Origin: a virus
Taxonomy: Duplodnaviria > Heunggongvirae > Uroviricota > Caudoviricetes
DNA length: 5,853 nt
Reading direction: 5' to 3' (one strand)
IMG/VR virus record: IMGVR_UViG_3300012983_001310
The notes under the pieces are model-generated. The model was not told the origin of the DNA. It saw only the letters and a program-made list of their open reading frames with translations, and did no database searches. The position numbers were made by a program, and so were the translations under genes. Each line of letters opens with the position of its first letter. Position 1 is the stretch's first letter. Shown here one piece after another: positions 1,787 through 5,853 of this stretch.

Positions 1787-2206
1787 TCGTGTTTCCGCTT
1801 CGCCGGAGCGCCTTTTCGCGCCATGTGATGAGTTCGGTCAGGCTCATGGGATACAGTTCTGATGGCGGCCAGTGAAATATCACTGCCACATCCGCCATCA
1901 GGTCATCGACCGAGAGATTTTTCGGGAACGTTACTGCACCGAGTTCGGCGACAAAAAACCGACCACCTTACCGGCCAGCGCCACAAGGTCAGGCAGTTCC
2001 AGCGCGGCGACTTCCTGCTCGGTCAGCATCGGTGCCGTCATGCGCGGCAGCACCTTAATCAGTGCATCGACTTCGGAGTTCGCGACCGCAGCCAGACTGA
2101 CACCGCGCAGCGTCCCGGCATTAGGTTTCATCAGCGTGACCTGTTCGATAACCTGCTCACCACGCTTGACCGGATTGTCCAGGGTAATCACATTTTCTTT
2201 GTTCAT
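1779..2206 (-). CDS. E+E': Tail assembly chaperone E+E' (142 aa), made by -1 programmed ribosomal frameshift at 1952-1958
   Basis: After a -1 slip on T_TTT_TTG, I translated the new frame by hand: it stays open for 57 codons (VAELGAVTFPKNLSVDDLMADVAVIFHWPPSELYPMSLTELITWREKALRRSGNTNE) and ends at TAA 1781..1779. 85 + 57 = 142 aa, the size known for P2 E+E'. The E' stop overlaps the T start (ATGAGTAA). Confidence 0.75.
1931..2206 (-). CDS. E: Tail assembly chaperone gpE (91 aa), zero-frame product
   Basis: 91-aa ORF (MNKENVITLDNPVKRGEQVIEQVTLMKPNAGTLRG...GFLSPNSVQ) with ATG at 2206 and TAA at 1931-1933. Size and position between the tube gene and the tape measure gene match P2 gpE. Contains the slippery heptamer near its 3' end. 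Confidence 0.9.
   Translation of the reverse strand: MNKENVITLDNPVKRGEQVIEQVTLMKPNAGTLRGVSLAAVANSEVDALIKVLPRMTAPMLTEQEVAALELPDLVALAGKVVGFLSPNSVQ
1952..1958 (-). other. Slippery heptamer T_TTT_TTG for the -1 frameshift (plus strand reads caaaaaa)
   Basis: Minus strand reads GGT TTT TTG TCG in the E frame, so the X_XXY_YYZ heptamer is T_TTT_TTG, placed 6 codons before the E stop. The chaperone/tape-measure frameshift is a conserved feature of tailed phages and is described for the P2 E/E' pair. Confidence 0.75.
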
Positions 2207-2262: not shown

Positions 2263-2781
2263 TCACAGGCCGATATTGCGGCGGTGTTGCTCCAGCCGGT
2301 CGACGCCGTTCACCTTCTCAATCATGTTGATGGTGTCGATTTCGACCAGCTCCTTACCGTCCATCGTCAGCCGGAAATAGGTGCAGACCACGGAGATTTT
2401 CGACTCGGTGTCTTCTCCCTGTTTGCCCTCGCCGGTGTCGATTTCTTTCTGACGTCCACGCATGACCACCTCGACGGCCACCGTTTCGCCGGTATCGTCG
2501 CGCTGGTAAGAGCCTGCAAAACGAATCGGTACGGAATCCACACCGGTTGCGGCGTAAAGCTCCCAGATAACCGAATCCGGGAAGCCACCGAGCGACCACT
2601 CCATTGACAGCGCATCGTCATCAAGGCCGAGGTCTACCGGTGCGCTGCCGTTCATCCCCGCACCGCGATAGTTTTCGAGCTTACGGGTCAGTTTTGGTAG
2701 CGTGACGGACTTCGCGACGCCCTGATAGCTGTAGCCGTTCAGAAAGACGTTCATTAACTTGAGTTTGCGCGGCATTGCCAT
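2263..2781 (-). CDS. FII: Major tail tube protein gpFII (172 aa)
   Basis: 172-aa ORF (MAMPRKLKLMNVFLNGYSYQGVAKSVTLPKLTRKLENYRGAG...) recognised as P2 gpFII. ATG at 2781 is preceded by GGAG with an 8-nt spacer (minus strand GGAGCCTGACCG-ATG). Lies directly downstream of the sheath gene with a 12-nt gap. Confidence 0.93.
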   Translation of the reverse strand: MAMPRKLKLMNVFLNGYSYQGVAKSVTLPKLTRKLENYRGAGMNGSAPVDLGLDDDALSMEWSLGGFPDSVIWELYAATGVDSVPIRFAGSYQRDDTGETVAVEVVMRGRQKEIDTGEGKQGEDTESKISVVCTYFRLTMDGKELVEIDTINMIEKVNGVDRLEQHRRNIGL

Positions 2782-2793
2782 CGGTCAGGCTCC

Positions 2794-3984
2794 TTAATTG
2801 CTGTTAACCGAGGTGACCAGATTTGCCAGGTATTTATCGGTAATACGCTGGCGCAGGGTCAGGTTTTCAAGAGGAGGCACCGGTGTATAGTCGTAGTCGA
2901 TATACAGTTTTCCGGCCTTGAGGGTTTCCGCATCGTTGGATTCTTCGCTGAACCAGCAGGTCGCATCCACGATATAGCCGTTTGTTTTCAGCTCACGGAA
3001 TTTGGCATTGATGCCGTCAACGATGTCGCGAATCAGCGTTGCGGTGATGGGCTTGTCCACCGCCCACATGTGCGCCTCAGCCATCGTGTCGGCCATCACC
3101 TGCGCGGTGCGGGTGTAGTTTTCAAAGAGGAACAGCGGGTCATCAGAGCAGGTACGGTTACCCCAGAATCGGAAACCGTCGCGGCGAATCAGCGTAGTGA
3201 CGCCTGACTTGTTAAGCAGGTCAGCATCGGTGCCGGACTCCTGCAAATCCCAGAATACAGATGCGCTGATGCCGGTAACACCGTTTACCCCGACGTTGGA
3301 CAGCGTTTTATGCCAGCCCTGCTCCTGGTCGATTTTAGCGCGCAGACCCAGCGCACGGGCGGTGGCATACGCGGTGGCGGTGGTGCTGCTGACCGTATCC
3401 CATGCGAGGAAATCCGGCCAGATGACCATCAGCTCACGCTGGCTGAAATTCTGACGGTAGGCTTTCACCTCGGAAATGGTTTTACAGCCCCATGCGCTGA
3501 TATACCCGAAAGCGCGCAGCTTCTGACAGACTGATGCCAGTGCAACAGCCACCTCTTTGGTGTCCAGTCCCGGCACGCCGAGAATACGCGGTTTAACACC
3601 GGTTACCGACTCCGCCGCCAGCAGGGCTTTCAGTCCGGTGTACTGACCGTTTTCGTCGGTGGTGCCGATGATATTGGAAACGGTCTGCGCGAGTTTCGTT
3701 TCCTCGTCGTCGCCGGTGCCGTCTTCCACACGCACGACAACGGTGACCGGTTTTGACTGGTCGGCGATAGCCTGCAACGATGCCGCCAGCGTGCCTTTTT
3801 TACCGGCCTTTGCAATTGCGCTCTGCACATTGGTAATCAGCACAGGTTTATTGAGGGGGAAGGTTTCCGCATCCGCATCGCTGGCCGTGCAGACCATGCC
3901 GACAATGGCAGTGGATACGGTGGAAATGACGCGGGTGCCGTCGTTAATCTCCAGCACCTGCACGCCGTGATGATAGTCACTCAT
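2794..3984 (-). CDS. FI: Contractile tail sheath protein gpFI (396 aa)
   Basis: 396-aa ORF (MSDYHHGVQVLEINDGTRVISTVSTAIVGMVCTASDADAETFPLNKPVLITNVQ...) recognised as P2 gpFI; the length matches. ATG at 3984 is preceded by GGAG (minus strand CCACGGAGTTAAACGG-ATG). GC-rich coding sequence. Confidence 0.95.
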   Translation of the reverse strand: MSDYHHGVQVLEINDGTRVISTVSTAIVGMVCTASDADAETFPLNKPVLITNVQSAIAKAGKKGTLAASLQAIADQSKPVTVVVRVEDGTGDDEETKLAQTVSNIIGTTDENGQYTGLKALLAAESVTGVKPRILGVPGLDTKEVAVALASVCQKLRAFGYISAWGCKTISEVKAYRQNFSQRELMVIWPDFLAWDTVSSTTATAYATARALGLRAKIDQEQGWHKTLSNVGVNGVTGISASVFWDLQESGTDADLLNKSGVTTLIRRDGFRFWGNRTCSDDPLFLFENYTRTAQVMADTMAEAHMWAVDKPITATLIRDIVDGINAKFRELKTNGYIVDATCWFSEESNDAETLKAGKLYIDYDYTPVPPLENLTLRQRITDKYLANLVTSVNSN

Positions 3985-4078
3985 CCGTTTAACTCCGTGG
4001 TTAATGGGTGCAACTATTTTCTGTTGTGCAGAGCATGAGACGCTATTTGACCTGGCTGGTCAGTGGATGAAACAACAG

Positions 4079-4107
4079 ATAAAGAAAAGGCGGGCAATTC
4101 GCCCGCC
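4079..4107 (-). terminator. Rho-independent terminator downstream of the cargo ORF, oriented for minus-strand transcripts
   Basis: Minus strand reads GGCGGGC-GAATT-GCCCGCC (perfect 7-bp GC stem, 5-nt loop) followed directly by TTTTCTTTAT. On the plus strand the same hairpin is followed by a poor T-tract, so it is mainly unidirectional. It lies ~175 nt past the cargo stop and ~95 nt before the FI start. Confidence 0.6.
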
Positions 4108-4282
4108 TGTCCTGATTTGTACTCACTCATTTTCCAACTGACTATTTACATAGTCCAAACGCTATCAAATCTGACTGTCTGCTTTGAGCGAGGTGCTGAC
4201 ATCCGCATGAATGTATGGAGCTGCCGCACACTCTAAAAATGATAGAACGTCTATATATTAATTATCCCTAAGTCCAGTTTCA

Positions 4283-4810
4283 TTAATCAATTTTATTACT
4301 TTTACCTGCAACCTTTTTATTATAGTGATAATAAGAAATAGCACTAGCAAAATAGGATTTTGTCATCGATACGAAAAAACCCAACAAATCTGCCATGTTA
4401 TCAATATCAATATTTGGTTTGGTTTTACTGGCTTTAGTAATCTTCATGTAGAAGTCCACAAACTTACTTTTTTCTTTATCCGTAATCTGATAATTCAATT
4501 GATGACTGATTTTATTTCTTATGCTGTTAAAGTCTTTTATTCTTAAATATATTTCATCATAAGGGGGTTTTGCAGGCTCATGTTGTATTAAAGCTATTTT
4601 TTGTGAAAATGTGAGTTTTGCATCACCCCAAGCTAACGAAGGATATCTTAATCCAAGATAATCAGTAATATACTTTTCAAGGCTCAAGTGCGCAGTAAGA
4701 AAGGCACCTATGAAGGCAACGTCAACCCCATCAACACGTTCCCATATGCTTTCATTTTCATCAGTCATACCTGTATACACAGCAGTTGATGCAAGATCTT
4801 TCCAGTCCAT
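4283..4810 (-). CDS. Hypothetical 175-aa cargo protein in an AT-rich island; candidate lysogenic-conversion or anti-phage defence gene; HEPN-like R-x4-H motif is speculative
   Basis: 528-nt ORF in DNA of roughly 25-28% G+C (my hand counts on 60-nt samples), where stop codons are frequent and long ORFs are unlikely by chance. ATG at 4810 is the first possible start (in-frame TAA two codons upstream) and is preceded by AAGGA with a 6-nt spacer. Same strand as the tail genes, flanked by its own terminator. Predicted product is largely helical by eye; R98-N-K-I-S-H103 is encoded at 4502..4519. Confidence 0.8.
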   Translation of the reverse strand: MDWKDLASTAVYTGMTDENESIWERVDGVDVAFIGAFLTAHLSLEKYITDYLGLRYPSLAWGDAKLTFSQKIALIQHEPAKPPYDEIYLRIKDFNSIRNKISHQLNYQITDKEKSKFVDFYMKITKASKTKPNIDIDNMADLLGFFVSMTKSYFASAISYYHYNKKVAGKSNKID

Positions 4811-4845
4811 GCTTTATCCTTTTAAAGGTGAATTTAACGAGTTTA

Positions 4846-4874
4846 ACTTTATCTCAACTCAATACTTATCTCAA
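4846..4874 (-). promoter_or_regulatory. Candidate sigma70 promoter for the cargo ORF: -35 TTGAGA (4874..4869), 17-nt spacer, -10 TAAAGT (4851..4846)
   Basis: Read on the minus strand: TTGAGA is a 5/6 match to TTGACA and TAAAGT a 4/6 match to TATAAT, with 17-nt spacing. Predicted start near 4839 gives a ~30-nt leader to the ATG at 4810. Two copies of TTGAGATAA overlap the -35 and the -10. AT-rich DNA gives many chance matches, so confidence is low. Confidence 0.3.
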
Positions 4875-5199
4875 AATTTATGAGTAGAAATAACATCCAC
4901 AAAAAACTATTAAAGCCCTTTTACCTCTTATTATTGATGAAAATGTACATTTTTATAATGAATGTCGAAGAACCTCCTCAGTGGAACTATCAACTACACA
5001 TTGCAAGACTAGAGTATGTGCAAACCTTTTGACAAGGTTCTGAAATATTCATGGTGGCCTTATTATATCAATTTATCTTCACTTTATACATTAACATAGC
5101 ATGATGTTGATAATGTCCGCTCCTAGCACAGAGCGGACTGTCAGATTAGGCCTTACTCTGTACTATAGCTATGTTAACTAACACAAGAGATCATATCAC

Positions 5200-5727
5200 T
5201 TATTGCGGCATTTCCGGCCATTCAGGATTTGCAGGATCCACACGGCTGACCAGAACACAGTAGCGTTCCCATGCTTCCAGTCGGCTACGCTCCTCATCTG
5301 TTGCCATGTTCAGTCTGACAGCGCGCTCCAGTGGCTGAATAACGCTTTCCGCTTCGGAAAGTAACGCGGCCTTTTGTGATTCTGCCTGTTGTTGCTGTTC
5401 GTCTGCCGTATAAATCCGCTTAATCACGGCACCATCCTTAAACATCCATTTACCTGAGTCATCAGCACGTCGGTTGGCGGTAATATCAGGAACCTCGACA
5501 ACGTTAAAACCTTCAGGGTTAAGCGTTGAAGCATCCCTGGTGATGCCGACAATTATATTATTCTCATCGTAAACAATCTTTATCGTGTCCTCCTGAAAAT
5601 TACTTACTTCCTCATACCAGTTTTTTCCCTCTTCGGACCATAACCAGATAACATCAAAATTTTTTGTCAGTTGATATTGGGCAACAGTTTTTGGATTACC
5701 CGCAGTAATATTTTTTAAATGCTGCAT
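5200..5727 (-). CDS. G: Tail fibre assembly protein gpG (175 aa)
   Basis: From ATG 5727 the product is [40 protein letters not shown]...[30 protein letters not shown], recognised as P2 gpG / Mu U family with the characteristic C-terminal W-x-RY-x-V-L-x-RVD...EWP motif; 175 aa matches P2 gpG. The ORF-track start at 5814 is a TTG with no Shine-Dalgarno. The frame is open upstream to the window edge, so the true start is not fully certain. Confidence 0.85.
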
Positions 5728-5853
5728 AAATTGTAAGCGTACAGCCTGAACCGTCTGGTCAGAATCTGACGAATTAGACAAAGTGGTGTCCACCAAATAA
5801 GTAGTGGGAACCAAAGTGTCAGATATGCAGAAAAATGTGACTCCCGGCAGGCG
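5728..5853 (-). other. H-G junction: either the 3' end of the upstream tail-fibre gene (H-like) or an H-G spacer; frame not resolvable in this window
   Basis: Synteny in P2 (V W J I H G) places tail-fibre gene H immediately upstream of G. Of the three minus frames, the G frame is open to the window edge, a second frame is open to a TAA at 5717..5715 overlapping the G start, and the third stops at TGA 5821..5819. Only 126 nt are available, so the H stop cannot be fixed. Confidence 0.3.

Follow-up and report, generated by a model that had tools for sequence, protein, structure and literature searches.

A predicted stand-alone HEPN protein as exchangeable cargo at the Z/fun hotspot of a P2-like phage

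Which gene occupies the AT-rich interval between the tail genes FI and G of a P2-like phage, and what might it do there? The question is raised by the IMG/VR record IMGVR_UViG_3300012983_001310, a virus of the Caudoviricetes whose 5,853 nucleotides (nt), hereafter the window, are the whole stretch of DNA analyzed here. All genes of the window lie on the minus strand and, according to the open reading frame (ORF) list, Pfam, and PHROG, constitute a P2 tail module. The initial annotation, made from the letters of the sequence, had described an island with a single uninterrupted 175-codon ORF between the tail sheath gene FI and the tail-fibre assembly gene G, placed it at the P2 Z/fun-type site, and taken the ORF for a horizontally acquired conversion or defence gene, either Z/fun itself or another occupant. 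At the P2 Z/fun hotspot, the island forms a cargo cassette that is exchanged horizontally and encodes one stand-alone HEPN protein. Since this protein of 175 amino acids (aa) is a distant relative of the abortive-infection protein HepS and its gene is seated in a known defence hotspot, it most likely represents a new single-gene anti-phage element; we put the probability that it acts as an anti-phage RNase at roughly 0.6.

The cargo segment and its site

The ORF is present as described, and its location between FI and G is borne out by Pfam, PHROG, homology of the flanks, and synteny with P2 and phage vB_EcoM-569R9. The borders of the island, originally set at 4108-5114, are corrected to 4203-5110, because in pairwise BLAST the homology to six P2-like phages (P2, Wphi, L-413C, P22H1, PhiR44_1, and P2-EC67) ends at 4191-4202 and returns at 5105-5127. 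The segment has a G+C content of 32.5% versus 55.5% in the backbone, the G+C content at third codon positions (GC3) is 0.27 in the ORF versus 0.69 in FI, and a sliding G+C profile drops from 0.55-0.60 to 0.28-0.40 over ~4100-5200. Earlier hand counts were reproduced exactly (63.3% at 3301-3360, 28.3% at 4321-4380, and 25.0% at 4861-4920).

The cargo sits exactly between the arms of a 35-nt imperfect inverted repeat (Table 1). These arms correspond to the features named 'left' and 'right inverted repeat' in the P2-EC67 Z-region record AJ512685, and they are kept across P2-like phages despite their differing cargos. An 8-bp hairpin without a T-run lies within the left arm itself. The inverted repeat may be the substrate or the scar of the recombination that exchanges cargos; a blastn-short search to extend it was uninformative.

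The occupant varies across P2-like phages while the flanks are conserved, and the G-FI interval is a true swap site. Wphi carries orf44 (299 aa), L-413C an antiparallel gene (259 aa), P22H1 and PhiR44_1 a gene of 181-197 aa, P2-EC67 the 303-aa ORF1 with an Mrr_cat nuclease domain, and the Yersinia phage vB_YpM_115 a multi-gene insert. PADLOC, applied to all of these occupants except the vB_YpM_115 insert, gave no hits. That insert (L023, 3769-7218) contains nepI (an efflux pump), a gene for an unknown 352-aa protein, and pgrR (a regulator) at the G-FI position. Its genes look bacterial-chromosomal, and no G gene lies within the stretch covered; a cargo of unusual size, a piece of transduced DNA, or a faulty assembly could explain it. 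The PhiR44_1 occupant, considered as a relative of the 175-aa protein, is unrelated (HHalign 0.8%). BLASTP also excludes Z/fun itself (E = 1.8). P2 Fun(Z) (NP_046777), which blocks T5 according to the P2 record, resembles the present gene as an AT-rich, non-essential cargo of the same locus, but it has 528 aa and the opposite orientation. The gene is a different, uncharacterized occupant of a site that has been published as a defence-enriched hotspot (PMC9519451) and that, as a hotspot among the tail genes, is credited with 16% of the defence systems of P2 (PMC13586616); the analysis of Rousset et al. was limited to the gpA-gpQ hotspot.

The cargo is rare wherever its flanks occur. One of 65 phage records that share the FI-side flank carries it, namely vB_EcoM-569R9 (ON470601), and a tblastn search with the 175-aa protein likewise matched only one phage record. 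Among 5426 complete Escherichia coli genomes, a P2-type flank is found in 1053-1691 and the cargo in 50, where it is always chromosomal, 95-99.9% identical, and moves as a unit. As just ~3-5% of the flank-bearing genomes have it, the gene is dispensable, and since an isolated phage carries it, it is compatible with P2 particle production. The compositional contrast, this sparse distribution, and the presence of close homologues in unrelated mobile elements of other genera uphold the proposed horizontal acquisition.

The 175-aa protein and its relation to HepS

All database copies of the protein are labelled 'hypothetical protein', and its exact sequence occurs on 641 contigs. It matches phrog_5483, a family of unknown function, and a literature search on the accession and the PHROG found no mention. 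The close family comprises 24 clusters at 90% identity, all from Enterobacterales, and the motif R98-N-K-I/L-S-H103 is invariant in an alignment of 22 members. An exhaustive profile search extends this set to 368 representatives (clustered at 50%) at E <= 1e-3, with 88 at E <= 1e-10 and most of them 150-210 aa long; RNxxxH stands at the equivalent place in ~140 of the best 150. In an alignment of 84 sequences with 20-30% identity, E45, R98, N99, and H103 are the only invariant residues. An apparent '183-aa variant' in ON470601 (L001, 2799-3350) is an artefact of partial assembly, with a run of N over the catalytic motif.

The HEPN signature defined by Anantharaman et al. combines an Rx4-6H motif, in which a polar residue (N/D/H) follows the arginine, with a second conserved acidic residue in the N-terminal helix (PMC3710099). 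Both elements occur here, as R98-N99...H103 and E45, which are the residues of metal-independent HEPN endoribonucleases, and the Ex3[KR] form of the acidic motif is not evident in the family. Sporadic Pfam matches among the relatives all fall in HEPN families (RiboL-PSP, Csm6_HEPN, Cthe2314, MAE_28990, DUF4145, and Abi_2). The AlphaFold2 model reaches a predicted local distance difference test score of 78.4 with the family alignment versus 93.7 with the superfamily alignment (predicted template-modelling score 0.84). The better model has the alpha-helical up-and-down bundle of HEPN proteins, with helices at 31-55, 61-64, 68-75, 87-103, 111-128, and 139-171, and an N-terminal beta-hairpin (10-15, 21-25). 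Foldseek ranks HepS first with a probability of 0.89-0.95, though with E-values of only ~0.1. We regard a HEPN fold with a catalytic-type site as nearly certain. Two kinds of match were rejected. Those to DUF6548 and FKBP26_C were sub-threshold and confined to the motif helix. Those to three giant proteins (P0038, P0146, and P0153; 2278-4271 aa, 7-16 profile matches each, to the motif helix) are spurious, since these are S/T-rich repeat proteins without Rx4H, in which the repeats amplify the matches.

HepS (STM14_3211; PDB 9oij/9oik) is a solo HEPN abortive-infection protein of the Salmonella prophage Gifsy-1 (Sargen et al., Nature 2026, PMC13043305). It is a tetramer with occluded active sites that are allosterically opened by the siphovirus tail-tip protein J, whereupon specific tRNA anticodon loops are cleaved; its termini are disordered until trigger binding and then form a trigger-binding sheet. 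Tha, like HepS, is activated by phage tail proteins, and the authors collected 393 HepS homologues by PSI-BLAST (PMC13043305). We recovered the full HepS sequence (214 aa, R100/H105 as published) from IMG/VR contigs by means of a degenerate motif-peptide pattern. The corresponding degenerate DNA pattern matched in viral contigs and gave 0 matches in genome contigs. A 40-aa HepS fragment had no match by tblastn in the phage collection and no candidate by word-indexed search, and a word-indexed search with the superfamily alignment returned the known family only, without HepS.

The superfamily profile matches HepS in the PDB with E = 4.1e-7, and its sequence-level matches are HepS and Csm6 nucleases. 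HHalign of this profile with HepS gives a probability of 95.2% (E = 2.6e-8, 88 columns, 20% identity), pairing residues 37-126 with HepS 40-128 and E45, R98, and H103 with E48, R100, and H105. BLASTP aligns the two proteins with 24% identity across 72 aa. Given a low-identity alignment that covers the HEPN core only and leaves the trigger-binding termini of HepS unaligned, the 175-aa protein appears, by these profile comparisons, to be a remote homologue in the HEPN neighbourhood of HepS and not a close family member. Like the HepS family, it is a stand-alone HEPN protein of <250 aa, without a conserved partner, carried on prophages. Unlike HepS, it has a confidently predicted N-terminal beta-hairpin (10-25) where HepS has termini that are disordered before the trigger binds, it belongs to a myovirus (P2) rather than a siphovirus, and its gene lies inside the tail gene cluster, whereas that of HepS lies between replication and antirepressor genes. 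AbiF/AbiD (Abi_2), MNT-HEPN toxins, Csm6, and Tha share with it the HEPN fold and the Rx4-6H RNase site and are used in phage defence. It differs from this group in having no Abi_2 or other Pfam HEPN membership, and in having no non-coding RNA (ncRNA), MNT, or CARF partner.

A mode of action can be proposed by carrying over that of HepS through remote homology, and we give this activation logic slightly less than an even chance of applying here. The lysogen would make the protein constitutively from its own promoter as a latent, non-toxic oligomer with closed composite active sites, to which two protomers would contribute the arginine and the histidine, as in other HEPN RNases. A protein of an infecting phage would bind, possibly at the family-specific N-terminal beta-hairpin and the C-terminal tail, and open the active sites; tRNA or other RNA would then be cut, translation would stop, and the infection would be aborted. 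The resident P2 would have to avoid triggering the protein.

Mobile contexts and rival explanations

Homologues with 59-89% identity are spread over many mobile contexts, and the neighbours differ among the eight genomic contexts of the family. One homologue lies 3' of the tail-fibre gene in another P2-like prophage, beside AbiGi (Pfam 7.7e-58, PADLOC 2e-31). Another is flanked by ogr and gene A in a degraded P2-like element, a third adjoins cI in a 186-like prophage, with a PIN-domain gene nearby, and a fourth adjoins the lysozyme gene of a siphovirus-type prophage. In an AlpA-type island the gene stands two genes from the integrase, beside a DUF2971 protein (PADLOC candidate PDC-S31, 1.4e-27); in Serratia it is found in an island adjacent to an integrative and conjugative element (ICE), and in Pectobacterium sp. 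PL64 it shares an island with DUF2971 and a reverse transcriptase. The defence-gene neighbours, together with the HEPN assignment, strengthen the original idea of a conversion or defence gene. The gene is under purifying selection, with ratios of nonsynonymous to synonymous substitution rates (dN/dS) of 0.10-0.24 versus seven homologues. Three of these loci show further features. The cargo that includes AbiGi (L006, 6001-8177), located at the tail site, has three genes, the HEPN member being followed on the opposite strand by AbiGi and an unknown 228-aa protein, possibly AbiGii. The PL64 island (L005) has a 166-aa HEPN paralogue (5284-5784; motif RNKFAH, HHalign 97.6%) with the family member directly after it in tandem (6001-6510). 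In Citrobacter (L027), an upstream 170-aa gene has an RNWLAH motif but no profile similarity.

Several observations weigh against an anti-phage role. Scans of the protein with PADLOC, Pfam, and NCBIfam gave nothing significant; the PADLOC-DB 2.0 library, which includes the PD-T4, PD-Lambda, and PD-T7 systems of Vassallo et al., gave 0 hits at E <= 10, and the sequence is absent from the supplementary tables of that study. The blank PADLOC result is weak counter-evidence, since HepS and Fun(Z) likewise have no PADLOC hit. The similarity to HepS is remote (~20% identity), HepS falls outside the 150 best representatives, and the narrow family profile aligns with HepS at an HHalign probability of only 71%. 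P2 cargo is sometimes non-defence, with partition systems and toxins mentioned by Rousset et al. The ORF runs in the same direction as the tail operons, with no terminator between it and G, which leaves room for a role in the late phase of P2 itself. The structurally closest proteins, YggD and MtlR, are regulators and not nucleases.

That last resemblance raises the possibility of a non-catalytic MtlR/YggD-like HEPN regulator that binds a host protein or RNA in a lysogenic conversion unrelated to phage. MtlR/YggD proteins (PDB 3brj, 6kcr, 3c8g) are gamma-proteobacterial regulators that share the fold at 10-17% identity. In the MtlR family, however, the catalytic motif is kept in only ~60%, and the non-catalytic members lose it (PMC3710099), whereas here R-N-x3-H and E45 are invariant over 84 sequences. 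Pfam MtlR has no hit to the protein (E <= 1) or to any of the 84 relatives (E <= 0.01), the context is mobile-element cargo rather than a mannitol operon, and the sequence-level matches are to nucleases, so that we consider this the least probable of the alternatives. An orientation shared with G and FI, unlike that of fun(Z), would suit a factor of benefit to the phage, an RNase or RNA-binding protein that serves P2, for example by acting on host or satellite P4 RNA in the late phase or by modulating late gene expression, and is made by read-through of the V-W-J-I-H-G operon. A terminator scan called none between G and the ORF, the first one following the ORF, and the cargo contains a single dyad of the Ogr/Delta activator type, TGT-N12-ACA, ~210 nt upstream of the ORF (5017-5034). 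That motif is at chance level (1 versus 1.6 expected) and is no sign of an Ogr-type late promoter, the gene is dispensable, and the family also occurs in the siphovirus-type prophage, the integrase island, and the ICE-adjacent island described above; such a role seems quite unlikely.

An RNase could also serve as a toxin or addiction module, activated by stress or by loss, that stabilizes the prophage or the cassette, is neutralized by an unrecognized antitoxin of small-protein or RNA type, and has no dedicated phage sensing. This explanation is improbable, if slightly less so than the two before it. The cargo contains no MNT or other co-oriented ORF of >20 aa and no tandem repeats of the ToxI or AbiF-ncRNA kind, TRF having returned two trivial repeats. 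The leader of the ORF folds no better than shuffles, and in other genera it is not conserved, with just 90-215 nt upstream of the gene; the neighbours change with every context. An Rfam scan of the cargo found no family at its gathering score. Below that threshold, 4078-4327 (minus strand) matches two Salmonella Hfq-binding small RNAs, STnc150 (21.3 bits, gathering 60, E = 0.015) and isrF (16.7 bits, gathering 40), over the 3' end of the ORF, its 3' untranslated region (UTR), the right repeat arm, and the terminator. These matches probably reflect chance or AT-rich sequence plus a terminator, and a 3' UTR-derived small RNA ending at the backbone terminator is a less likely reading.

Expression signals, backbone, and wider meaning

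The initial annotation had also credited the ORF with a good ribosome-binding site, a candidate promoter, and an intrinsic terminator that together made the island a self-contained expression unit. The Shine-Dalgarno sequence is indeed in place, and its position is conserved in the Pectobacterium, Ewingella, and L006 homologues, from three other genera. The promoter is plausible, as homologues keep a -10-like box at the equivalent place 30-60 nt upstream (a perfect TATAAT in two), but it lacks statistical support because promoter-like hexamers are no commoner than in shuffled sequence (5 seen versus 4.9 +/- 2.5). The terminator was misassigned. P2, Wphi, L-413C, and P22H1 share its hairpin and T-run no matter which cargo they carry or in which orientation; it thus belongs to the backbone and lies outside the island's own unit. 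It probably ends both the island transcript and read-through from the V operon before the late promoter pF, whose region is conserved in the same four phages regardless of cargo. One homologue carries a terminator of its own; with the Shine-Dalgarno sequence and the -10-like box retained in homologues from three genera, the gene thus travels as an expression unit between accessory sites of prophages and other mobile elements. In contrast to Fun(Z) and HepS, the ORF shares the direction of the V and F tail operons, with the first terminator beyond G lying downstream of it, and P2 late transcription may therefore read through it. On the plus strand, a 45-aa ORF (4004-4141), labelled 'hypothetical protein' in vB_EcoM-569R9, P22H1, PhiR44_1, and other Peduovirus records, overlaps the pF region and the backbone terminator and is therefore probably an annotation artefact.

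Table 1. Features of the window in the cargo segment, its flanks, and the tail module.
Feature	Position	Strand	Basis or remark
Variable cargo segment, 908 bp	4203-5110		Homology breaks and composition
Solo HEPN-fold protein gene, 175 aa	4283-4810	-	RefSeq WP_001461859-type 'hypothetical protein'; phrog_5483
R98-N-K-I-S-H103 codons, predicted HEPN Rx4H catalytic motif	4502-4519	-	Invariance; aligned to HepS R100-H105
E45 codon, second invariant acidic residue, helix 1	4676-4678	-	Invariance in 84 sequences; aligned to HepS E48
Inverted repeat, right arm	4168-4202		35 nt, 80% complementary to 5113-5147; inner edge of FI-side flank
Inverted repeat, left arm	5113-5147		Inner edge of conserved G-side flank
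Shine-Dalgarno AAGGA	4817-4821	-	6 nt before ATG
Candidate proximal sigma-70 promoter, TTGAGA-17-TAAAGT	4846-4874	-	Consensus scan, 9/12
Candidate alternative distal element, perfect extended -10 (TGATATAAT)	5062-5070	-	~250 nt upstream of ATG; read from sequence
Intrinsic terminator	4081-4108	-	Stem 4108-4088, T-run to 4081; 9-bp G+C-rich stem, 3-nt loop
pF late promoter region, F operon	4004-4077	-	Ogr site ~4049-4077, start ~4004-4006; inferred by homology, transferred from P2 record features 17555-17583 and 17626-17628 via 96.5% identical flank; conserved in 5 phages
T, end of gene		-	Tail module
E	1931-2206	-	Tail module gene
FII, tail tube	2263-2781	-	Tail module gene
FI, tail sheath	2794-3984	-	Pfam Phage_sheath_1 1e-33, Phage_sheath_1C, Gp18_domIII_N
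G, tail-fibre assembly	5200-5727	-	Pfam Caudo_TAP 5.5e-37; phrog_136 3.8e-80

The backbone matches P2, Wphi, L-413C, P22H1, PhiR44_1, and vB_EcoM-569R9 in gene order and with 94-98% nucleotide identity, and FI, the right-hand neighbour of the hotspot, with G on its left, is syntenic with P2 FI and 569R9 GpFI. The longest ORF for G reaches 5814, but the gene has its P2-type start at the ATG at 5727; the Caudo_TAP and phrog_136 matches both begin at residue 30 of the long ORF, and G is 528 nt long in P2 and 569R9. AT-rich sequence (37.5% G+C) also covers the start of G and the end of H (5500-5800), and G is only 78% identical to its counterparts in P22H1 and PhiR44_1 versus 88-93% to those in P2, Wphi, and L-413C. 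This split and the AT-richness suggest that the tail-fibre module adjoining the hotspot is separately mosaic.

A bolder version of the proposal, which we hold to be rather unlikely, makes the family an independent second line of HEPN nucleases in which one protein is both sensor and effector and has a trigger specificity of its own. The hairpin and the tail would then recognize a structural protein from rival phages, distinct from the siphovirus J protein, and expression would be boosted in the P2 late phase, given the co-orientation of the gene in tail operons with no intervening terminator. If so, the virion proteins of P2 itself would have to be non-triggering, which would tie the specificity of the cargo to the surrounding structural genes.

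Neither the hotspot nor the HEPN superfamily nor prophage defence by solo HEPN proteins is new; the family described here is unnamed and invisible to Pfam, NCBIfam, and PADLOC. With residues E45, R98, and H103 and the exact 908-bp cassette defined, its proposed role is directly testable. If the 175-aa protein is an anti-phage RNase, the Z/fun hotspot, which is poorly catalogued, would gain a compact defence element of a single gene, and HepS-type solo HEPN immunity a second family, one that has other sensor regions and is hosted by a myovirus. Attention would also be drawn to a wider, unnamed HEPN clade that current annotation and defence-finder libraries miss, and comparison of the HepS and 175-aa families would reveal how trigger specificity arises on a minimal HEPN scaffold.

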